From Dehalococcoidia bacterium (GTDB lineage: Bacteria; Chloroflexota; Dehalococcoidia; Lucifugimonadales; UBA3495), in the NCBI GenBank assembly GCA_965204715.1, contig OZ242009.1, positions 244,893 to 308,892 on the forward strand: a stretch of 64,000 nt of DNA. The letters are read 5' to 3'. A model generated the notes under the pieces. It did no database searches. It was not told the origin of the DNA and worked only from the letters and a program-made list of their open reading frames with translations. A program made the position numbers and the translations under genes. Position 1 is the stretch's first letter; the number at the start of each line of letters is the position of its first letter. Positions 2,361 through 13,484 of the stretch are shown here, one piece after another.

Positions 2361-2806
2361 ATCGAACGCTCACTGCTCTACGGCATCCCGTGCCTGTTGC
2401 CGGTCAAAATCATGGTGGTATACTTCCCGCATCGTGGCCCGATGTAATATTCAATACGCGAAACGGCCGGCTCCGCCCTCGACCGGCAGTGTAGACGACA
2501 TGAGGCATATAGCCGTCCGTATGGCAGCTATTTGAGTTGTGTATGGATCGTATTAGCGTAAATTGCCCTCTGCATGAAGCTATCCTGCCCATTCCCCCTT
2601 CTTTCCATATTCCGGGGCATTGCAGTGAGCTGTTATCCGGGCTTGTTGCCACGGCTATGCTCCTGCCCTCGCCTCTGCCCACCGCAAGCACGTGTTCAAC
2701 ACAACCTTCCGGATCACGGTCAGCCCAATTACAAATGCCGCAGTGTTAATCGGGAACGCTCTTGGGAATTATGGCATCATCGCCTCGATAGAATGGAGGA
2801 ATCGAC

Positions 2807-3973
2807 ATGACGGTCCAGAGAGCCGCTACAACCCAAGACGAACTGCTCAGCGAGTGGCACAAGAAAGCGTGGCTCAAGCGATTGTTCCTGCCTGGGGATT
2901 TCCTGGAGCAGGTCAGCATGGACGGGGCAGAAAACATGGTATGTCATAAGACCACTATGGAATATCTGTCTATGATCGACCAGGTAGAGACAAAGACCGT
3001 CAAAGTTTCTGAATCCCGCAAGCACTCAACCGACGTGGATTACCGCCCGCAGGAATTCAAGGACGAGATCCTCAAAATCATTACCAACGCTGCGAAAGTC
3101 AAATGCGACAGTTGCTCCGGGAGAGGGAGGAGTACCTGCGGGAAGTGTTCCGGAGATGGGAAAGTCACCTGTGGCAAGTGTTCCGGGAGAGGCGAAGTCA
3201 ACTGCGATACCACAAAGAATTGCGGATCCTGCGGGGGAAGCGGCAAACGCCGGGAGAATTGCGGGTCCTGCGGCGGCAGAGGCAAACATGAGAGGAAATG
3301 CGGGACTTGCGGCGGCGGCGGCGTTACTGGCCGCGGCGGCAGCGGCGCCGGGCCGTGCTACTCTTGCGGCGGGAGCGGCAAACATAGCAAGGATTGCGGC
3401 AGTTGCAGCGGGGGTAAAGTCACCAGGAATTGCGGCCGTTGCAGAGGAGGCAAAGTGACTTGCGACCGGTGCGGCGGGAGGGGCAGCGTTGGTTGTAACC
3501 GCTGCAACAGGAGCGGCATTCTGACCTGCAACCGGTGCAACGGGAGCGGCAGCGTGGTCTGCGGCACATGCGATGGGGCAGGCGAGCTGGTGAAGGGGGA
3601 TATCATCACCAGGAAATTTTCATGCTCAACGGACCTGACGTACCGGTTATCCGGGCTGGCCGCCAATGAGTTCAAGAACGGGCTGGCGGCCAAACACTTC
3701 GAGTCCGTAACCGGGGACCTGGTGCAAGAGGAATTACAGACCCCCGCCAGCAACGATATTGTGTTACAGCGGCAGACTGTCCACTCCTATGACGTGCTTT
3801 CGCACGGCTACTCCTACAACGGTGCGGAGTTCCGGTTAAACCGGATAACCACCGGCAACGGCTTGAAGTACGTCGCCTTGGGTATGCCCTTTTCCAAGAC
3901 CAGGACTGCCATAGCTGGCGCTGTATTCTTTGTTGCTGCGGCGGCAGTCTCAGCCCTATTGATATTTCTCTAA
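2807..3973 (+). CDS. tail-anchored protein with an array of 13 CxxC (DnaJ cysteine-rich-domain-like CxxCxGxG) zinc-finger motifs
   Basis: GGAGGA lies 6 nt before ATG 2807. Residues ~100-265 contain CDSC, CGKC x2, CGSC x3, CGTC x2, CYSC, CGRC, CDRC and CNRC x2, mostly followed by xGxG. The C-terminus is the hydrophobic AIAGAVFFVAAAAVSALLIFL. Confidence 0.75.
   Translation: MTVQRAATTQDELLSEWHKKAWLKRLFLPGDFLEQVSMDGAENMVCHKTTMEYLSMIDQVETKTVKVSESRKHSTDVDYRPQEFKDEILKIITNAAKVKCDSCSGRGRSTCGKCSGDGKVTCGKCSGRGEVNCDTTKNCGSCGGSGKRRENCGSCGGRGKHERKCGTCGGGGVTGRGGSGAGPCYSCGGSGKHSKDCGSCSGGKVTRNCGRCRGGKVTCDRCGGRGSVGCNRCNRSGILTCNRCNGSGSVVCGTCDGAGELVKGDIITRKFSCSTDLTYRLSGLAANEFKNGLAAKHFESVTGDLVQEELQTPASNDIVLQRQTVHSYDVLSHGYSYNGAEFRLNRITTGNGLKYVALGMPFSKTRTAIAGAVFFVAAAAVSALLIFL
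3218..3334 (+). repeat. three tandem 39-nt coding repeats inside the zinc-finger array
   Basis: Units begin at 3218, 3257 and 3296 (aattgcggatcctgcgggggaagcggcaaacgccgggag / aattgcgggtcctgcggcggcagaggcaaacatgagagg / aaatgcgggacttgcggcggc...). They encode NCGSCGGSGKRRE, NCGSCGGRGKHER and KCGTCGGGG. Confidence 0.7.
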
Positions 3974-4129: not shown

Positions 4130-4996
4130 ATGCCATATACTGCCGACATCAGCCGGGCCAACCCCGCCTGCTTCCTTTTCCTGATCGACCAGTCGGGATC
4201 GATGGAACAGGCATTGTCCGGCCAGCCCGGTTTTCGCAAGATGGACCAGGCGGCAATCGCGCTCAACGGCATCCTCAACGCCCTGTCACTGCGCTGCTCC
4301 CAGGGCATGGAGGTGCGAGACTACTTCCACATCGGCGTAATCGGCTACAATACCGACAGCTCCGGAAATCCAACGGTGCGAAGCGCCCTCCAGGGCACGT
4401 CCCCCGATTCGCCCTTCCTCCTGGTCAGCCAGGTGGTTGACCTCGCAGAAGTCGAAGACCGGCAGGTCAAGGAACCCGACGGCGCGGGCGGCCTGGTGGA
4501 AGTCACCCGGAAAGTGCCCGTCTGGTTCCACCCCCACGCCCAGTACGGCACCCCCATGTGCGAGGCTTTGGGGGATGCCGCCGCAGCCTTGCGGACCTGG
4601 ACCGGCGAATATCCCGACTCCTTCCCGCCCATAGTGATCAACATCTCCGACGGCATGGCCACCGACGGAGACCCGCAGGCCCCGGCAGACGAGATAATGG
4701 GGCTCGGCACCTCCGACGGCAACACCCTGCTCTTCAACATCCACCTTTCCGAAACGGCGGCAGTGCCCATCCAGTACCCCGACAGTGAGGATGGCCTGCC
4801 CGACGAGCACTCCAGGACGCTGTTCCGCATGTCCTCGGTGCTGCCTGAGTCCAGCCGGAGCATGGCCGTCACCCTGGACCTGTCGGTGAACGAGAACTCC
4901 CGCGGCTTCGTCTTCAACGCCAACATGGAGTCGCTGGTGCAATTCCTGGACATCGGCACCCGAGGGCCTTCCAACGCGCCTTCCGATCTGCACTGA
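4130..4996 (+). CDS. TerY-like von Willebrand factor A (vWA) domain protein, paralog 1
   Basis: N-terminus MPYTADISRANPACFLFLIDQSGSM carries the MIDAS DxSxS motif. The downstream MIDAS Thr (YGTPMCEAL) and Asp (NISDGMATDGD) are also present. No signal peptide. Confidence 0.8.
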   Translation: MPYTADISRANPACFLFLIDQSGSMEQALSGQPGFRKMDQAAIALNGILNALSLRCSQGMEVRDYFHIGVIGYNTDSSGNPTVRSALQGTSPDSPFLLVSQVVDLAEVEDRQVKEPDGAGGLVEVTRKVPVWFHPHAQYGTPMCEALGDAAAALRTWTGEYPDSFPPIVINISDGMATDGDPQAPADEIMGLGTSDGNTLLFNIHLSETAAVPIQYPDSEDGLPDEHSRTLFRMSSVLPESSRSMAVTLDLSVNENSRGFVFNANMESLVQFLDIGTRGPSNAPSDLH

Positions 4997-5055
4997 CAGC
5001 CAGGGGCAGGGGCGCCCTGCCAGCCACCAGCCACCGGAGAGGAGGAGAGCCGGAC

Positions 5056-6003
5056 ATGCCATACACCGCCGACATCAGCCGGGCCAATCCCAGTTGCTTC
5101 ATGTTCCTGGTTGACCAGTCCTACTCCATGGAGGGAGCGCTGGCAGGCCAGCCGGGGCAGCACAAAATGAACGCTGCCGCCGACACGATAAACCGAGTCC
5201 TGGAGAGTCTCACCCTGCGCTGTTCCCAGGGGATGGACGTTCGTGACTACTTCGACATCGGTATCCTGGGCTACGGCTGTGAACAGAAGGCGGAATACGA
5301 CCCGAATCAAGTCTACGGTTACCTGGATGCAAACGAGGTGTATCACGAAATACCACATGCCCAGTTGGACAAAGACAACCTCGTCGAATGCGTAGTAATC
5401 AGCGCCCTTCCTGGGACCACCCTGGAACAGCCCTTCCTGCCCATCAGCAGGGTGGTGGAAGTGGCCGAAATGGTGGACCGGCAGGTGAGAGAGAGCGACG
5501 GCAGAGGAGGAACAACCGAAGTAACCCGCAAGATGCCCGTCTGGTTACGGCCTCATGCCGGGGCGCAAACCCCGATGTGCGAAGCTCTGGCCCACGCCGG
5601 ACAGGCCATCGAACGATGGATCTCCCGGCACCCCGACTCCTTCCCCCCTGCCGTTATCAACATCAGCGACGGCGAGGCCAACGACGGCGACCCTGAGCCT
5701 GTGGCCCAGCAGATCATGGGCCTGCAAACGTCCGATGGCAACGTACTGATGTACAACTGCCACCTGTCCGAGTTGGCGGCAATGCCCATCCAATACCCCG
5801 ACCGGGAGGACGGCCTGCCCGACCAGTTCGCCCGGAGCCTGTTCCGCATGTCGTCGGTACTGCCCGATTCCATCCGGGGACTGGCGGCAACCCTGGCCCT
5901 GCCGGTCAGGGACAACTCCCGCGGCTTCGTCTTCAACGCCGACATGACTGCCCTGGTGCAATTCCTCGACATCGGCACCCGCGGCCCTTCCAACCTGCAT
6001 TAG
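5056..6003 (+). CDS. TerY-like vWA domain protein, paralog 2 (with ~30-aa insertion)
   Basis: MPYTADISRANPSCFMFLVDQSYSM (DxSxS), AQTPMCEAL and NISDGEANDGD. Collinear with paralog 1 except for an extra segment, EQKAEYDPNQVYGYLDANEVYHEIPHAQLDKDNLVECVV. Confidence 0.8.
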   Translation: MPYTADISRANPSCFMFLVDQSYSMEGALAGQPGQHKMNAAADTINRVLESLTLRCSQGMDVRDYFDIGILGYGCEQKAEYDPNQVYGYLDANEVYHEIPHAQLDKDNLVECVVISALPGTTLEQPFLPISRVVEVAEMVDRQVRESDGRGGTTEVTRKMPVWLRPHAGAQTPMCEALAHAGQAIERWISRHPDSFPPAVINISDGEANDGDPEPVAQQIMGLQTSDGNVLMYNCHLSELAAMPIQYPDREDGLPDQFARSLFRMSSVLPDSIRGLAATLALPVRDNSRGFVFNADMTALVQFLDIGTRGPSNLH

Positions 6004-6078
6004 GGACGCGGGTCCTCTGCACGGCGGAGGGCCGGAGCAGCCGTGGAGGATCCACGTTTCAGAAATTGAGAGGCATCT

Positions 6079-6852
6079 ATGGAACTGCGAGGTCTCAGAA
6101 CACTCTGGATGGCCAAAGCCGGCAATCGCCCGGAAGAATGTGAAGACTCCTACGCCTTCGACCCTCTGGCCTGCCGCGTGGGTTCAATGGGCGTTAATAC
6201 CGCCAGGATCGCGGTTTCCGATGGGGCCAGCGAGTCGGCCTTTGCCCGGAGCTGGTCGCAGGTCCTGAGCCAATCATTTATCGACAGGCCCCTGGACCTG
6301 TCAGGCATCGGCCAGGACGCCCTGGAAAGCTGGCTCGCTCCAGGCCAGCAGGCATGGGACGCAACAGTGCCCTGGGACCGCATCCCCTGGCACGGGGAGG
6401 CCAAGGCGCGGGCCGGAGCGCTGGCGACACTGCTCGGTCTGACCATCTCCCCGGCGGGCGCGGGGGCCCTGTCCTGGCAAGCAGTTGCCATAGGCGACTG
6501 CTGCCTCTTCATAGTCCGCGACGGCAAGTTGCTCCGGTCCTTCCCCCTCGACGATGCCGCCCAGTTCAACAACACCCCGGTCCTGATTTGCAGCAACCCG
6601 GCCAATAACCGGGGCCTTGGCGGTCACGTCCGGCAGGAACGGGGGGACTGCGCCCCCGGAGACCTGTTCCTCCTGGCCTCCGACGCCCTGGCCTGCTGGA
6701 TGCTGGAGGACCACGCCCAGGGCGGCAGCCCCTGGGACACCCTGCTGGCCTTGGACTCCCACCAGGCTTGGGAAGAATGGGTCAACACCCAGAGGCAAGA
6801 ACGCATAATGAAGAACGACGACACCACGCTGGTTGTTGTAGAGGTGGAGTAA
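6079..6852 (+). CDS. PP2C-family Ser/Thr protein phosphatase
   Basis: Acidic metal-binding motifs appear in PP2C order: PEECEDSY, AVSDGASES, ASDAL and a C-terminal KNDDTTLVVVEV. Its position between the vWA and kinase genes matches TerY-P triads. Confidence 0.7.
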   Translation: MELRGLRTLWMAKAGNRPEECEDSYAFDPLACRVGSMGVNTARIAVSDGASESAFARSWSQVLSQSFIDRPLDLSGIGQDALESWLAPGQQAWDATVPWDRIPWHGEAKARAGALATLLGLTISPAGAGALSWQAVAIGDCCLFIVRDGKLLRSFPLDDAAQFNNTPVLICSNPANNRGLGGHVRQERGDCAPGDLFLLASDALACWMLEDHAQGGSPWDTLLALDSHQAWEEWVNTQRQERIMKNDDTTLVVVEVE

Positions 6853-6873
6853 CAGAAAAAGTGAGGTGAGCTT

Positions 6874-8274
6874 ATGGCCTGGCCGCCGCCTGTTGACTTC
6901 AGGGACGCCGTCCAGAACCCCCAGAATTGCTTCGAGGTCCAGGATCTGGCCCAGGGGGCCACTGCGGTCACCCGCATGGGCACCCCGGTAGTCTGGTCGG
7001 GCAACTTCGCCTGCGTGTTCAAGGTGGCCACCCCCGGCGGCGACGTGGCCGTGCGCTGCTTCACCCGGGAGGTCAGGGACCAGCAGCAGCGCTACGGCCA
7101 TTTGAGCGAATACCTCGCCGGAGTCAGGCCGGGGTTCCTCGTGGGCTTTGAGTACGTGGAGCGGGGGATCAGGGTCAAGGGCGACTGGTATCCCATAGTC
7201 AGGATGGAGTGGGCCGAGGGAGACCGGCTGGACAAGTTCATCGAGGGACATCTAAACAGGCCGGACGTCATCATGGGTCTGGCCGCCAGTTGGCGCGGCG
7301 TAAACGGCGGGCTCCGGGGCCTTGAAATCGCCCACAACGACCTTCAGCACGGCAACGTCATGGTCCAGGAGCAGGGCGGCCTCCACCTCGTCGACTACGA
7401 CGGCATATACCTGCCCCGGTTCGAGGGAGAGCCCAGCCCCGAGATCGGCCACCGGCACTACCAGCACCCCAGGAGGACAGACCGGGACTACCATGCGGAG
7501 ATCGACAACTTCCCTTCCCTGGTCGTCTACCTGACCCTGATGGCCCTGGGCGTAGACCCCCAACTCTGGGACAGGTTCTACAACCAGGAAAACATGCTCT
7601 TCACCAGGGATGACTTCGCCGACCCCGCCAACTCCGATTGCTTCAAAGCCTTGAAGTCCAGCCCCGACGCCTACGTCGCCGAGCTGACCGGCATACTCGA
7701 AGGGTTCTGCTCCCAACCTGTGGAACAGGTGCCCCGGCTGGAGAACGTCCTGCGCGGCGTTACGGCCTCTCCGCCAACAGCGTCCACGTCCGCACCGGCA
7801 CCCGCGCCTGCTCCCGCTCCGGCGCCACCCGCACCCGCGCCCGGCGCTCCCACGGCTCCTCCATCATCAGCGCCTGCACCTCCACCTGCGCCACCTATCC
7901 CGCCGTCGTCATGGCCCGCGCCTGCACCGCCACCTCCGCCAGCGCCAGCGCCGCCTGTGCCCCCGTCGTCACGGCCCGCGCCACAACCGCCGCCCGTTCC
8001 CGGCGCTCCGGCGCCGCCCCCGCTTCCGCGGCCACGGGTCCCGTCAGCTTCGTCGCCAGGTCCGGGGGGACTCTTCGAAATGGCGAGAGAGTCCAACAAG
8101 CCGATATTTATCCTGGCTGGTCTCTGGCTCTTCTGCGCCATGCTGGGATCGTTTCTGCCCTTCTTCGGGGGGTTCGGCCTCATAGTCTTACTGGCGCTGA
8201 TTTGCGCCATCTGCTACAGAATACGGCCGGTACGTGAATGGATTGGCGACCGTTTAAGCAATCTCAGGAGATGA
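6874..8274 (+). CDS. Ser/Thr protein kinase-like protein 1: kinase domain + Pro-rich linker + C-terminal TM hairpin
   Basis: Catalytic loop [13 protein letters not shown] and DFG-equivalent [10 protein letters not shown]. The beta3 position reads VAVRCF (Arg, not Lys). About 90 aa of the linker are PA/PP-rich. The C-terminus PIFILAGLWLFCAMLGSFLPFFGGFGLIVLLALICAICYRIR forms two TM helices. Confidence 0.75.
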   Translation: MAWPPPVDFRDAVQNPQNCFEVQDLAQGATAVTRMGTPVVWSGNFACVFKVATPGGDVAVRCFTREVRDQQQRYGHLSEYLAGVRPGFLVGFEYVERGIRVKGDWYPIVRMEWAEGDRLDKFIEGHLNRPDVIMGLAASWRGVNGGLRGLEIAHNDLQHGNVMVQEQGGLHLVDYDGIYLPRFEGEPSPEIGHRHYQHPRRTDRDYHAEIDNFPSLVVYLTLMALGVDPQLWDRFYNQENMLFTRDDFADPANSDCFKALKSSPDAYVAELTGILEGFCSQPVEQVPRLENVLRGVTASPPTASTSAPAPAPAPAPAPPAPAPGAPTAPPSSAPAPPPAPPIPPSSWPAPAPPPPPAPAPPVPPSSRPAPQPPPVPGAPAPPPLPRPRVPSASSPGPGGLFEMARESNKPIFILAGLWLFCAMLGSFLPFFGGFGLIVLLALICAICYRIRPVREWIGDRLSNLRR

Positions 8275-8366
8275 CCAGCCCCGCGAACGGCGTCGAGTCA
8301 GACCGGCCATCGGGAACGCGGTCCCCCGGCGAGGGGGATGGCGTTCCGGAGAAAGCGAGGTGAGCC

Positions 8367-9689
8367 ATGGCACAGCCAACCAGGTCTCCAGCGCCCGCAT
8401 CAGCGCCTGCGTCGAGTAGTGGAGAAGACCTCGGCAACCAGTTCCTCCTGAGCGGCAAGTTCATAGCTGCCCTGTTTGTGACCGCCCTCATACTCGCTGC
8501 GCTATCTTTCTTCGCCGACCTATTCGGGCCGATTTCCCTCATAGTCCTTGCGTTGGCGATTTGCGCTCTCTGTTACAGGTTGAGACTCGCCATGAGGTTC
8601 CTGATATGCGCCCTGGTGCTGGCCGGTATAAGCCTTTACGTGGCCAGACCCATGCTGTCGGAGACCTTCTACGATGTGGGTTTGAAAGTCCTGAGTTCCT
8701 ACGGCGACCCCGGTGAGAGAGCAATCTGGCCCGACCCGGCCAGGAGGGACCTGCCGGACACGGTCGTCACAGAAGTCCCATACGGCGACGGCTTGCAGGG
8801 CTTCGACACCACCACCGCGGAAGGCAGGGTTGGGGCGATCTCGGGCCTGAAGTATGAAACGGGCGCAAGATACCTGGGGTACGCCGCTGCCGCACTACTG
8901 TTTACCGGGCTGGTCATTGCCTGCCTCGGCACAGCCTTGAGGCTGCTGGGAGTTACCAGGGAGCCGGCAGCGGCACCGGCATCCACGTCCAGCGCGTCGG
9001 GACTGTTCAGCAAGATTGGTCGAGACGTCAGGGTGGGGCTGGCCATGGTGGCCATCGGGTGGGTATTGTTCCTGGTCGGCGGGCTTCCGCAAGATATCTT
9101 CAATGGGTCACTCCCAGGGGGCGTGGACTATCTCAGAGGGGAGGGCATAAATTCGGAAGCCGCGCATCTATTCTGGCCAATGATGATACTCGATAAAGTC
9201 CAGTATATGGGTGGCGCACTCATTTGGATGGGGATTGCCTTCTCCTTCTTCCCATTGGTTAGAAGAGCATGGAGATGGGCCTGTTCAAAACATGACCACT
9301 ATTACAGAAAACTGGGATTTGCATTGGTGGCGTTCGGGACCCCAGTAAGTGTTTTCTCTCTGAATGTTCTGCCGGCGTTGATCATCCCAACGGTCCGGGA
9401 AACCGCGGCCCCGCCCGGCGATTTCATGTTTCTTTCCAGCTTCACCTACTACCCAGAGTGGCTCAGGACAAGTATGTCAATCATGGACATTCTGGGGCCG
9501 GCATGCATAATCGCCGGGATTCTCTTTATCCTGTTCGGAGAAAACACTCTGCCCTGGATTTGTAAACTTATAGCAAAATACTTTAGCTCCTGGTTCGCCT
9601 CGCCCGGTCGTCCGTCAAGTTCTGGTTCCCCCAGCAGCAGCGAAAGAGACAGCGGGCCGCCTACCCTATTTGACGGCAGGCCACGCTGA
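8367..9689 (+). CDS. polytopic membrane protein of unknown family, paralog P1 (~8 TM, Ser-rich C-terminal tail)
   Basis: 440 aa with a Pro/Ser-rich N-terminus and about 8 hydrophobic helices. Conserved blocks shared with P2 include ETFYDVGLKVLSSYGDP, LFWPMMILDKVQYMGGALIWMG, IPTVRE and WLRTSMSI. The tail is PGRPSSSGSPSSSERDSG. Confidence 0.6.
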   Translation: MAQPTRSPAPASAPASSSGEDLGNQFLLSGKFIAALFVTALILAALSFFADLFGPISLIVLALAICALCYRLRLAMRFLICALVLAGISLYVARPMLSETFYDVGLKVLSSYGDPGERAIWPDPARRDLPDTVVTEVPYGDGLQGFDTTTAEGRVGAISGLKYETGARYLGYAAAALLFTGLVIACLGTALRLLGVTREPAAAPASTSSASGLFSKIGRDVRVGLAMVAIGWVLFLVGGLPQDIFNGSLPGGVDYLRGEGINSEAAHLFWPMMILDKVQYMGGALIWMGIAFSFFPLVRRAWRWACSKHDHYYRKLGFALVAFGTPVSVFSLNVLPALIIPTVRETAAPPGDFMFLSSFTYYPEWLRTSMSIMDILGPACIIAGILFILFGENTLPWICKLIAKYFSSWFASPGRPSSSGSPSSSERDSGPPTLFDGRPR

Positions 9690-9714
9690 TCATAGGCGTT
9701 CTCGGAGGTAAGCT

Positions 9715-10947
9715 ATGGACCAGCCAACTAACCCGCCGACCCCCGCACCGACGCCTTCACCCGCATCACCACCTGAGACCGAGTCCGTTACGTTTTGGCC
9801 TCGCGGACTAATCTGTATCGGGGTCGGGATCATACTTATGATATTGGCCCCGATTGTGCAGGCGATCACGGGAAGTCTAGTCCTCCTATTCGTTAGCCTG
9901 ATAATCTTCGCCGTGGGATACTGCGTTGTCTCTTTCGATTTTAGACTGGTCCCCAGGCTGTTGGTGTTGGCCGTTATGGGAATTGCAATCATCTCTTTTC
10001 TGTCCACATTATTCCTGGGGGAAGTCTTCTATGATGCGGTGCTTAAAGTCCTGAATTCCTATACCGACCCGGTGCAAAGGGAGTTTTTGCCAGACCCAGA
10101 GCAAGCAGAGGCGGCGAAAGACATGCCCTTTGGTGTCGAGTCCAAATCTGAAATGGGTTCTCAACTCCTGGAGTTCACCGGGTACATATCCTTTGCGCTC
10201 GGAGTCATCGTTACTTGTCTTGGCGCATTGCTCAAATTTGCAGGCAAGTTTCGCGGGGTAATCGGAGTTGGACTGTCAATGATAATTATTGGCCTGTTCC
10301 TGCTTCTCACCCCCGCGCTTCCGCAGTACATCCTGGATGAGGTTCTCAGAGAAGGCACAGGTTATTCGAATGGGGCAATCAGCCCTAACTCCCCGGTCCC
10401 GTGGTTGTTCTGGCCGCTTTTCGCCCTTGACAAGGCATCGTACGTAGGCGGCGTAATCATGTGGCTTGGGGTATTCATCCTCATATTGGGCCTGATCGAC
10501 CGTCTGATCAACAGAAGGGGAGAGGATGCCGAGGTCAAGAGGCTGGGCCTGGCGTTATTCGCAATTGGAACACTCGGAGGCATCTTCCATTTTTATGTTC
10601 TGGAGGATTTCCTTATTCCAACTGCCCGGGAAATCGGAATTGCCGCGATACCGGGATGGCTCAGAACATCCATAAGCATCCTGGGCTACACGTGGTGGAT
10701 ACCCACATTGCTTGGGACCATATTCTTCATCGCAGGAATCAGGACCATGCGCAAGATTGGCTCTGCCGCAGAAAAAACCCTGGGCGCCATACATGACCAT
10801 ATTCCCGAACCATCTCCATCAAGCGGCGCGTCTTCCGAGAGTAGCAGCAGCAACGAGTCACCAGTCCCTGGAGGCGCCATCCAGGAAGCCAACAGAGCCG
10901 CACGTCGAGGCAACAGGGGCAGACGTGGCGGCGGTAGAGGCAGATAA
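9715..10947 (+). CDS. polytopic membrane protein of unknown family, paralog P2 (Ser-rich then Arg/Gly-rich tail)
   Basis: 410 aa. Blocks shared with P1 include EVFYDAVLKVLNSYTDP, LFWPLFALDKASYVGGVIMWLG, IPTARE and WLRTSISI. The tail is PSPSSGASSESSSSNESP...RRGNRGRRGGGRGR. Confidence 0.6.
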   Translation: MDQPTNPPTPAPTPSPASPPETESVTFWPRGLICIGVGIILMILAPIVQAITGSLVLLFVSLIIFAVGYCVVSFDFRLVPRLLVLAVMGIAIISFLSTLFLGEVFYDAVLKVLNSYTDPVQREFLPDPEQAEAAKDMPFGVESKSEMGSQLLEFTGYISFALGVIVTCLGALLKFAGKFRGVIGVGLSMIIIGLFLLLTPALPQYILDEVLREGTGYSNGAISPNSPVPWLFWPLFALDKASYVGGVIMWLGVFILILGLIDRLINRRGEDAEVKRLGLALFAIGTLGGIFHFYVLEDFLIPTAREIGIAAIPGWLRTSISILGYTWWIPTLLGTIFFIAGIRTMRKIGSAAEKTLGAIHDHIPEPSPSSGASSESSSSNESPVPGGAIQEANRAARRGNRGRRGGGRGR

Positions 10948-11082
10948 CCACATGACACAGTCGAGACCGACCCCGGCTCCTGTGCTGTGGACCCAGGAAC
11001 TTGCAATCAGCAGCCATAAGGCTACTCTAAGCGTTGTGGCATTCCAGCAGCACACGGGAGTCCCAGACCCAGGAGGTTGAAC

Positions 11083-12396
11083 ATGGCCTGGCCCGCGCCC
11101 ACTGATTTCAGGGATGCCGTCCAGAACCCCGAGAACTGCTTCGAGGTCCAGGACCTCGCCCAGGGAACGGCTTCGGTTACGCGCATGGGAACGCCGATGG
11201 TCTTCTCGGGCAACTTCGCCTGCGTGTTCAGGCTGGAAACCCCTGGCGGCAACGTGGCCGTGCGCTGCTTCACCCGGGAGGTGAAGGACCAGCAGGAACG
11301 CTACGGCCACCTCAGCTCCTACCTCGCCGGAGTCAGACCCGAGTTCCTCGTGGGTTTCGAGTACGTTGAACGGGGCATAAAGGTCAAGGGCGACTGGTAT
11401 CCCATCGTCAGGATGGACTGGGCCGAGGGGGACCGGCTGGACAAGTTCATTGGAGACCATCTGGACAGGCCGGACATCTTCATGGACCTGGCCGCCAGGT
11501 GGCGGGGCGTGAACGGCACCCTGCGAGGGCTGGGAATCGCCCACAACGACCTGCAGCACGGGAACGTTATGGTCCAGGAGCAGGGCGCGCTCCGCCTGGT
11601 CGACTACGACGGCATCTACCTGCCCCGGTTCGAGGGGGAACCCAGCCCCGAGATCGGCCACCGGCACTACCAGCACCCGAAGCGGACTTCCCAGAACTAC
11701 TATGAGGGCATAGACAACTTCCCCTCCCTGGTGGTCTACCTGACCTTCCTGGCGCTGCGGGCTGACCCTCAACTATGGGACAGGTTCTACAACCAGGAAA
11801 ACATGCTCTTTACCAGGGAAGACTTTGCCAACCCCGCCAACTCGGACTGCTTCAAGGCACTGAAGAGCAGCCCCGATGCCAACGTTGCCGAATTGACCGC
11901 CGTGCTAGAGGGACTCTGCTTTCAGCCCGTGGACCAGGTCCCTACCCTGGAAGAGGCTCTTCGCGGCGTCACCGTTGCCCCGTCAAGCGCGCCAGCCCCT
12001 CCGTCCCCGTCGAATGCGCCTGCTCCGCCCGCGCCGGCTCCCGCACCTGCCCCTCTGCCGTCCGCGCCCGCGCCGTCGGCGGGGTCTTCGTACCGGGACC
12101 TGCTCCAGTCCGGCCAGGCTGCCGCACCCGCATCACCCCCACCCGCGCCTCCATCATCAGCGCCCGCTCCGCCGCCGACGCCCACGCCGCCGCCTGCTCC
12201 CGCGGGCCCGGTGCTGGTTTGCCCCGGCTGCAACCGGACGAGCTCCACGGAGCATATATACTGCGGCTACGAAGACTGCGCCGCCGTGCTCCTTCCAGGG
12301 AGAAAGACCTGCAACGGCTGCAATTCCTCGATTCCGCTCAACGCCTACTTCTGCCCCGACTGCGGTGTCAATCTGGCGGCACCCGCCTCTATATGA
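11083..12396 (+). CDS. Ser/Thr protein kinase-like protein 2: kinase domain + Pro-rich linker + C-terminal double zinc ribbon
   Basis: AGGAGG lies 6 nt before ATG 11083. About 83% identical to kinase 1 over ~299 aa by manual alignment, with the same [13 protein letters not shown] and VAVRCF. The C-terminus is CPGCN...C..EDC...CNGCN...CPDCG. Confidence 0.75.
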
Positions 12397-13484
12397 AGTG
12401 CCCAACCTGCCAGTCCGTAGTACCAAGCACGGTCAGGTTCTGCGCTTATTGCGGGGCCGGGATTCTGGCGGCTCCGCCGTCTCCCGCTGCCCGACGGTCT
12501 GGGTTGTTCGGTTTCCTCTGGGCGCACAAGGCGCTGAGTTTCTTCTTCGGTCTCGGGTCCTTGCTGCTGATTGTGGCGCTGTTCTACGCGATGAATACGG
12601 GAGATGAGGAACCGGCAATGGCCTTGGCGCTGCCGCCCCCGACTGCCACCGCCGAGCCTGCCCCTGAGCCGGCAATTATACCTACGGAGACACCGGTCCC
12701 GACGGTTGGGCCGACAGAGGCTCCCGTGCCGGCAGTTGTGCCAACGGATACTCCGGCGCCGACAGCCACGCCCATTCCTACGCCCGAGCCGACGGAGACA
12801 CCGGTCCCGACAGTAACCCCAACCCCGAGTCCGACACCCATCCCAGCCGCGACTCCGACGCCTACGCCGGTCCCAACGGCGACGCTGATTCCGACAAATA
12901 CGCCGAGGCCGACGGCGACACCAGTCCCGACGGATACGCCTCAGCCAACGCCAACACTTCGTCCAACAGCCACCCCGACGCCCACGCCGCGTCCAACGCC
13001 CACACAGGTCCCGTGGAAGGACCACACCGGTAAGGGCGATAAGTGGGGCTACACAGTGGAAATCCCTGGAAACTGGAGGTCTGCGCGGGGCGGAAAGCAA
13101 GCAGAGTTGCGCTCTTCTGATGGCCGGGCTACCCTTACAATTAGCGTCAAGGACTATCCCGAAAAACTACCGCCGCAGCAGTTCGCCGAGGAGCACCGGG
13201 CCTCGCTGATCGCCAAATATGCCTATGATGCAAATTTTTTCAACATCCTGGGCTTCCGGGGAGTCCCGCTGGACGGCCACCAGTGGTTCCGGTTGTCGTG
13301 GCGCTTGCAGCAGAAGTCCGACTCATGTGTGCTGGACATCACCGACCTGGTCTCCCGTTCCCGGAACTTCCCCGGCTGGGACCAGGGGTATATCCTGAGC
13401 TTCCGGGTGTGCGATGAACATCTTCCCGCACATCTGAAGGACCGCAAGCGGATCCTGGACAGTTTCCGGGAACTCGCTCCATGA
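12393..13484 (+). CDS. zinc-ribbon / single-TM / Pro-Thr-rich linker / C-terminal globular-domain protein
   Basis: ATG 12393 overlaps the kinase-2 stop (ATGA). Sequence [21 protein letters not shown], then TM helix [21 protein letters not shown], then ~120 aa of PT-rich linker, then ~150 aa of non-repetitive C-terminus. The upstream part of track ORF 11775..13484 is a shadow frame. Confidence 0.65.

Follow-up and report, generated by a model that had tools for sequence, protein, structure and literature searches.

What does a tail-anchored bacterial protein built around 13 CxxC motifs do, and does it belong to the signalling genes beside which it is encoded? The question is raised by a stretch of 64,000 nucleotides (nt) from a Dehalococcoidia bacterium (NCBI GenBank assembly GCA_965204715.1, contig OZ242009.1, positions 244,893 to 308,892 of the forward strand; hereafter the window), in which a gene for a protein of 388 amino acids (aa) lies immediately upstream, on the same strand, of a TerY-P cluster of vWA, PP2C and kinase genes. 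We call it the zinc-ladder gene, after the structure predicted for its cysteine array. Our analyses relate this array to the cysteine-rich (CR) domain of DnaJ and place the protein in a very rare family that mostly occurs away from TerY-P. Its parts are given below with window coordinates, strand and, in brackets, the evidence, where ORF stands for open reading frame, AF2 for AlphaFold2 and TRF for Tandem Repeats Finder.

2711..2806, + strand: about 96 nt of DNA found together with the gene in its L001 counterpart, presumably the gene's own promoter and leader (blastn)
2795..2799, + strand: Shine-Dalgarno-like GGAGG, 7 nt 5' of the ATG (sequence)
2807..3973, stop codon included, + strand: zinc-ladder protein gene, 388 aa, tail-anchored (ORF list, translation, orthologs, dN/dS)
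2807..3103, + strand: N-half of the predicted base, aa 1-99, with three short helices followed by long beta strands and with LPxDF, VCxKTT and YxPxxFK motifs (AF2, conservation)
3104..3310, + strand: ascending arm of the predicted ladder, aa 100-168, with CxxC at 100, 111 and 122, lone Cys133 (CDTT), and CxxC at 139, 152 and 165 (motif count, TRF)
3311..3355, + strand: Gly-rich tip loop, aa 169-183, GGGVTGRGGSGAGP (alignment)
3356..3577, + strand: descending arm of the predicted ladder, aa 184-257, with CxxC at 184, 197, 209, 219, 230, 241 and 252 (motif count; spacings mirror the ascending arm)
3578..3892, + strand: C-half of the predicted base, aa 258-362, with ITRKF, SGLxxNEFKNGL, QTP and SYDV motifs (AF2, C-half profile)
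3902..3970, + strand: C-terminal transmembrane (TM) anchor, aa 366-388, with K364 and R366 before it (hydropathy, AF2)
3095-3206 and 3216-3316: tandem repeats of 33 nt and 39 nt, respectively (TRF)

A DnaJ-type cysteine array on a predicted base domain without matches

The ORF opens with an ATG and is the longest of its neighbourhood. A scripted count confirmed the 13 CxxC motifs reported by a sequence-only reading of the window and found the full CxxCxGxG form in 10 of them, the exceptions being those at residues 197 (CGSCSGGK), 209 (CGRCRGGK) and 230 (CNRCNRSG). With lone cysteines at 46, 133 and 273 the protein totals 29 Cys, alongside 57 Gly, and the array itself holds 27 Cys within 158 residues, all of them conserved. 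The closest relative, encoded at locus L001 (92% nt and 88% aa identity), retains all 29 Cys, and the ratio of non-synonymous to synonymous substitution rates (dN/dS) between the two genes is 0.41 over the whole gene and 0.32 over the array. Searches of 5.8 billion proteins yielded some 35 full-length relatives, 38-88% identical, with a common three-part layout and a terminal anchor. Because the cysteines are kept in the 88% ortholog, because of the dN/dS values and because the layout is common to about 40 full-length relatives, the ORF is a genuine gene and not a chance pattern. Two antisense ORFs over the array (3026-3385 and 3358-3753, - strand; 119 and 131 aa), which appear 'conserved' across loci, were dismissed as shadows of the GC-rich repeat region.

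Profile comparisons assign the array to the CR family as a homologue of the DnaJ CR domain, in line with the resemblance first proposed from the motifs. The family profile retrieves bona fide DnaJ proteins, and in hhalign it matched a DnaJ alignment with a probability of 98% (E 2.5e-13) over the CR domain and into the strand that leaves it. This comparison was made without the J-domain-carrying members described below; when one of them, P0037, was included, only its J domain was aligned. Among PDB sequences, the top match of the family profile was 1exk, the CR domain of E. coli DnaJ (E 8.4e-11), with further matches to DnaJ (6jzb), DNAJA2 (7zhs), DNAJA3 (2ctt) and Ydj1 (1nlt), and PF00684 is recorded for most orthologs. 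Structural comparison pointed the same way. The AF2 model of P0018, an ortholog with seven CxxC motifs, reached a mean predicted local distance difference test score (pLDDT) of 89.9, array included, and its only confident Foldseek matches in the PDB were the DnaJ CR structures 2ctt (probability 1.00) and 1exk (0.99); in BFVD it matched DnaJ/CR proteins. Foldseek with the model of the window protein, in which the array is poorly modelled, gave no PDB match at E <= 0.001, and searches of Pfam, NCBIfam, PADLOC and PHROGs with the whole protein and with its three parts gave nothing significant. A lead from the literature to LEA-2/TMEM106B was dropped, as it concerned a single CxxCxGxG motif only.

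The flanks of about 100 (N-terminal) and 120 (C-terminal) residues, which the sequence-only reading left unassigned, indeed remain without a match in Pfam, NCBIfam, PHROGs, PADLOC, PDB sequences, PDB folds or BFVD, and a profile of the C-terminal domain likewise found nothing among PDB sequences. Treating them as separate regions is, in contrast, not what the models suggest. AF2 modelled the window protein with pLDDT values of 84-97 over residues 10-100 and above 90 in the C-half, both halves also exceed 90 in the P0018 model, and in both models the strands entering and leaving the array adjoin other strands of a single base. The two flanks, which are the best-conserved parts of the family, are thus modelled not as independent domains but as a single beta-rich base, and the array would project from it. 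Likeness of the base to pore-forming toxins or viral fusion glycoproteins was rejected, with Foldseek probabilities of at most 0.1.

The resemblance to DnaJ extends from the CxxCxGxG knuckles and the CR hairpin fold of the ortholog model (PF00684; 1exk, 2ctt, 1nlt) to the apparent insertion of that hairpin between strands of a beta-rich domain, and some members of the family carry a J domain. The window protein itself differs in lacking a J domain, a glycine/phenylalanine-rich (G/F) region and the C-terminal domains I/II (CTD I/II) of DnaJ_C, and in carrying a C-terminal TM anchor. Neither PF00226 (J domain) nor PF01556 (CTD I/II) was matched in Pfam, and the base is unrelated to its DnaJ counterpart by sequence and was not matched to DnaJ or Ydj1 by Foldseek. 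With neither J domain nor CTD, the window protein is not a DnaJ/Hsp40.

Predicted ladder geometry and the history of the repeats

How could so many knuckles be arranged? In DnaJ, four motifs make two zinc sites across the CR hairpin, one from the outer and one from the inner pair, with two motifs to each zinc (PMC6985574). We took the longest gap of each array in the family as the tip loop and divided the array there; between the flanking CxxC motifs this gap spans 17 to 69 aa among relatives. Counts of CxxC motifs on the ascending and descending arms of 40 members were then (3,4) in 17, (4,5) in 18, (5,6) in two, (6,7) in two and (10,11) in one. One additional lone cysteine, in a C-[PDS]-T-T context, is found on the ascending arm of all 40; this site is a CxxC motif whose second cysteine has become threonine. 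P0036, which is without the lone cysteine, has (4,4). Rung positions on the ascending arm equal those on the descending arm throughout the members, and the spacings of the window protein, from the base towards the tip, are 11, 11, 11, 6, 13 and 13 going up and 11, 11, 11, 10, 12 and 13 coming down.

Because mirrored spacing and growth in steps of two motifs are what a ladder predicts, the array is best interpreted as a zinc-stapled hairpin ladder with seven rung positions, in which we infer the pairing register, the binding of zinc and the number of occupied sites from the motif pattern. The window protein would have six four-cysteine (Cys4) sites and one three-cysteine (Cys3) site at Cys133 (CDTT), and predicted rung numbers across the family are 4, 5, 6, 7 (window protein) and 11. 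The DnaJ CR domain, by comparison, has four motifs and two zinc ions against the 13 motifs and lone cysteine, and about seven predicted rungs, of the window protein. An earlier estimate of about six zinc sites is therefore replaced by about seven.

Long, mirror-symmetric CR-like arrays were also found in uncharacterised proteins outside the family (P0038-P0061), with up to 24 motifs and, for example, a 5+5 arrangement spaced 11, 11, 11, 11, ~36, 11, 11, 11, 11. They share with the zinc-ladder protein the array only (35-45% query coverage), having other flanks and no C-terminal anchor of the zinc-ladder type. Since unrelated proteins carry such arrays, ladder expansion is not unique to this family. 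What is known here is the CR chemistry; what is new is an expanded CR ladder in a base domain without matches, belonging to a family that is very rare and centred on Dehalococcoidia. By modular extension, DnaJ's two-zinc hairpin would become a multi-rung ladder, apparently through matched additions on both arms. If this is true, the family offers a natural, length-tunable, metal-stapled beta-rod, of use for protein design and for understanding the CR domain of DnaJ.

The sequence-only reading had described the 39-nt units at 3218, 3257 and 3296 as near-identical and had taken them as signs of recent expansion and possible copy-number variability. Pairwise identities of these units are 74%, 64% and 54%, the 33-nt units of the array are 58-73% identical, and the consensus in TRF was matched at 80% over 2.6 copies and at 72% over 3.4 copies, all of which points to old, diverged duplications. 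The number of motifs is also stable over short distances: no strain-level variability was seen in the strain variant L022, which covers the entire locus (98.8% identity over 8.7 kb), or in the 92%-nt ortholog L001, both with 13 motifs. Apart from point changes, the L022 gene differs from that of the window only by one extra base in a homopolymer. This insertion, in a run of A within the array (L022 ~9800, window ~3256), splits the gene into calls of 161 and 172 aa and is probably an assembly error; L022 is a long-read contig at 3.5x in which the downstream genes are fragmented as well. At deeper divergence the CxxC number does differ among orthologs, as the same reading had anticipated, with values of 6/7, 9, 11, 13 and 21. 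Tandem pairs of paralogs occur at L006 8926-10978, L016 6456-8730 and L018 7051-9394, in which a short copy with seven CxxC motifs is followed by a second copy, with 11 motifs in L016 (P0002) and 21 in L018 (P0030).

J-domain fusions, membrane topology and candidate function

When 1.84 billion representative proteins were scanned exhaustively with the C-half profile in HMMER, only 56 were retrieved, which defines a very rare and hitherto unannotated family, and all 10 matches in species-representative genomes of GTDB were metagenome-assembled genomes of Dehalococcoidia. In five of the 56 representatives (P0037, P0102, P0115, P0117 and P0123) an N-terminal J domain (Pfam E 1e-13 to 7e-23) leads, without a membrane segment in between, into the N-half, ladder, C-half and anchor of the family. 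Three others have a polytopic membrane N-terminus of about 300 aa, and one has N-terminal zinc ribbons. Since DnaK is cytoplasmic, the J-domain fusions place the module in the cytoplasm, and they also tie it functionally to the Hsp70 system.

This agrees with the topology of the window protein. Residues 366-388 are its sole hydrophobic segment, there is no N-terminal signal-like segment, AF2 models a helix at 364-387, and a terminal hydrophobic anchor is present in 57 of 62 full-length relatives. The single C-terminal TM helix noted at first sight is thereby confirmed, and the proposal of a cytoplasmic array tethered to the membrane gains support from this helix, the K/R residues on its N-terminal side, the lack of a signal peptide and the J-domain fusions without an intervening TM segment. 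The protein is tail-anchored, and its array most likely lies in the cytoplasm.

Among the J-fused members, the gene of P0117 lies inside a run of UbiA, flavoprotein, RibD_C and UbiE-methyltransferase genes (L023 5244-9755), near ActD and the cytochrome c maturation genes CcmF and CcmH; the setting is one of membrane respiratory biogenesis, seen in this one case. Elsewhere in the family, the P0023 gene in the species-representative genome L009 has an in-frame stop at 10631-10633 (ITRKF*CSTE), at a Thr codon, while the metagenome copy L020 is intact. Either this copy is a pseudogene or the assembly is in error; selenocysteine was rejected, the position being Thr rather than Cys and the L020 copy being intact.

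Taken together, these features suggest the following candidate function. The protein would face the cytoplasm from a C-terminal tail anchor in the membrane, with its N-terminal ~100 residues and the ~105 residues before the anchor folded as one beta-rich base on the membrane. From this base a long beta-hairpin, homologous to the CR domain, would project, and the CxxC knuckles of the outgoing and returning strands would jointly hold zinc. The addition of one knuckle per arm would have changed the length of the ladder, giving 4, 5, 6, 7 or 11 rungs. Ladder and base would form a binding surface, possibly also a dimerisation surface, for membrane-proximal proteins, which the protein would serve as a J-less DnaJ-like client binder, that is, as a holdase or assembly factor, and the distant members with a J domain would hand their clients to DnaK. 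We tentatively favour such a membrane-tethered, cytoplasm-facing, J-less DnaJ-like holdase or assembly factor, giving it somewhat less than an even chance of being right; client binding by the J-less form, and any link of that form to DnaK, are predicted from the homology and the fusions. Scaffold, redox or metal sensor, and holdase had been named as possible roles on the strength of the position upstream of the vWA/PP2C/kinase string. The positional argument finds no support, and it is CR homology and the J-domain fusions that make a holdase the favoured one of the three. The fusions also render the chaperone hypothesis directly testable.

By analogy, the plant plastid proteins OR and FIP, whose relatives among plant J-less DnaJ-like zinc finger proteins include LQY1 and BSD2, would be the nearest functional counterparts. 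They too are J-less and membrane-anchored and have DnaJ-type CxxCxGxG repeats in their soluble part. OR acts as a holdase on phytoene synthase and dimerises via its zinc finger (PMC6985574), and FIP is a partner of the FtsH5 protease (PMC5915565). In contrast to the zinc-ladder protein, OR and FIP are eukaryotic, plastid proteins with two to four motifs, N-terminal or internal anchors and no split base, and no sequence relationship with the zinc-ladder family was found beyond the CR motif.

Several observations weigh against a holdase or assembly factor. The array of the window protein taken alone stays below significance against PF00684 (E 0.16), and its AF2 model has pLDDT values below 50 in the array, so that the ladder is built on a shorter ortholog and on motif counting. 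The base shows no detectable similarity to DnaJ CTD I/II by sequence or Foldseek, which limits the parallel with DnaJ, a CR domain placed inside a beta domain, to the architecture. J-domain fusions are confined to distant members (~27-36% identity), and none of the J-less Dehalococcoidia genes was found near dnaK or grpE. The whole-gene dN/dS of 0.41 indicates only moderate constraint. Finally, the TerY-P adjacency recurs beyond chance at a second locus (L009/L020), where the zinc-ladder protein is 48% identical to that of the window, and a general chaperone role does not explain this recurrence.

Cysteines at such density could instead form a redox- or metal-responsive element, which would release zinc on oxidation, as Hsp33 and RsrA do, or catalyse thiol-disulfide exchange, which is reported in vitro for the DnaJ CR domain, making the protein a membrane-bound sensor of oxidative stress or metals, or a zinc buffer. 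The conservation of every cysteine in the array would suit this, as would the anaerobe-rich Dehalococcoidia as hosts, the oxidoreductase activity reported for the DnaJ CR domain, relevant under oxidative stress (PMC8262869), and the proposal that TerY-P is metal-sensing (PMC11090510). However, neither an output domain nor a conserved partner gene was found, and the strict Gly pattern with mirrored spacing favours a structural scaffold over a labile switch or a metallothionein-like buffer; the base, moreover, is the most conserved part, suggesting a function there too. We regard a sensor or buffer as unlikely, while noting that it overlaps with the holdase or assembly-factor explanation.

A similar overlap exists for a purely mechanical explanation, fully compatible with a holdase, in which the ladder would be a rigid spacer or an oligomerisation rod, setting a distance from the membrane or building a lattice, with its length given by the number of rungs and with short and long paralogs assembled as heteromers. 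Rung numbers that change in discrete steps (4 to 11) on a conserved base would fit a rod, as would the tandem occurrence of short and expanded paralogs in L006, L016 and L018, a variable Gly-rich tip loop that would hardly make a specific binding site, and the dimerisation mediated by the CR domain of plant OR (PMC6985574). Yet the distal tip carries nothing that would need spacing, and we consider a rod as the principal function distinctly unlikely.

Genomic context and the TerY-P cluster

The genes that follow the zinc-ladder gene match PADLOC models of TerY-P components, as does a second kinase further on, so that the downstream genes are readily assigned to the TerY-P triad.

4130-4996, + strand: TerY (PADLOC E 7e-84)
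5056-6003, + strand: TerY (PADLOC E 3e-81)
6079-6852, + strand: PP2C (PADLOC E 5e-35)
6874-8274, + strand: Ser/Thr kinase, STK_OB (PADLOC E 1e-71)
11077-12396: second copy of the Ser/Thr kinase (PADLOC)

TerY-P has been described both as a vWA/PP2C/kinase signalling switch and as a stand-alone anti-phage system, in each case with three components only (PMC11090510). We compared 18 distinct loci of the family, namely the window, L001/L011, L002, L003/L013, L004-L006, L007/L015, L008, L009/L020, L010, L012, L014, L016, L017, L018/L019, L021, L023 and L024; L022, as the strain copy of the window locus, was not counted separately. A TerY-PP2C-kinase set adjoins the zinc-ladder gene at two of them, the window (with L022) and L009/L020, and the remaining 16 have no vWA, PP2C or kinase gene within 7-10 kb. 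The functional link to the vWA/PP2C/kinase string put forward in the sequence-only reading thus fails on the very point that had been set beforehand as refuting it, orthologs lying mostly away from vWA and kinase genes.

The gene also appears to move by itself. Its closest ortholog (88% aa) sits at two different sites, one of them beside a DDE transposase, and blastn aligned window 2711-3972 with L001 9905-11166 at 91% identity over the gene and 96 nt upstream only, between unrelated flanks, with the homology stopping at the stop codon. A further copy of this mobile-looking gene block was seen at L012 8840-9790. The occurrence of the block in unrelated flanking DNA of another Dehalococcoidia genome suggests single-gene mobility or recombination. 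All-against-all clustering of ORFs from 14 loci found no conserved neighbour, returning only the antisense shadow ORFs and a multi-copy Uma2 gene, and in the 157-nt gap between the zinc-ladder gene and TerY there is a promoter-like TTGACA...TATGAT pair with a 19-nt spacer. The zinc-ladder protein matched 0 families in PADLOC, while its neighbours match strongly, and it is by no defining feature a component of TerY-P. The gene is an autonomous single-gene unit whose adjacency to TerY-P is at most occasional and lineage-specific, which corrects the guilt-by-association with the TerY-P defence cluster.

Could the protein nevertheless serve the adjacent TerY-P as an accessory partner at the membrane, as a scaffold, as a substrate of its kinase and phosphatase or as a ligand of the metal ion-dependent adhesion site (MIDAS) of the TerY vWA domain, and so couple the switch to the membrane? 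In favour are its place as genomic neighbour, immediately upstream on the same strand, of TerY-TerY-PP2C-STK in the window, the retention of this adjacency in the strain variant L022 and the order CxxC-TerY-PP2C-STK kept in the one other lineage (L009/L020) across substantial divergence (identities with the window of 64% for TerY, 54% for PP2C and 47% for STK), besides the double nature of TerY-P as signalling switch and stand-alone defence system (PMC11090510). Against it stand the 16 loci without such genes, those of the closest ortholog at two sites included, a homology between window and L001 that ends exactly at the stop codon, the promoter-like pair in the gap, the failure to match any PADLOC model, and published descriptions in which TerY-P has three components and the zinc-ladder protein is absent (PMC11090510). 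We judge such a partnership quite improbable. Least probable of all is the broadest proposal, a class of membrane-tethered co-chaperones or sensors with a length-tunable zinc ladder of 4-11 rungs, which in some lineages would serve as a fourth, membrane-anchoring component of TerY-P and link membrane proteostasis or metal status to the anti-phage kinase system.

Other neighbours recur within parts of the family. Clade-specific synteny involves Bac_luciferase, PEP_mutase, a membrane protein of ~410-450 aa and a small PH-like protein and does not reach the window. A convergent gene of the Uma2 family (PF05685) lies immediately downstream in six loci (L006, L010, L016, L018, L021 and L024); Uma2 being multi-copy in these genomes, this recurrence may be a coincidence. 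Genes for small PH-like/DUF6232-like membrane proteins lie directly upstream at L017 7343-7819 (bPH_2, E 1e-8), L018 5930-6469 and L021 7348-7884 (both weak), with no counterpart in the window.

The TerY-P locus of the window (4130-13484) is itself partly duplicated, with two TerY and two Ser/Thr kinase genes, the kinase part being 84% identical at the nt level, and between the kinases there are two paralogous membrane proteins (8367-9689 and 9715-10947; 31% identical). An ORF at 11775-13484, in which a zinc ribbon occupies residues 198-227, overlaps the second kinase ORF (11077-12396) in another frame. The segment 11077-13484 probably contains a frameshift or an assembly indel; its counterpart in L020 is a single protein of 771 aa that combines the kinase with the zinc ribbon.

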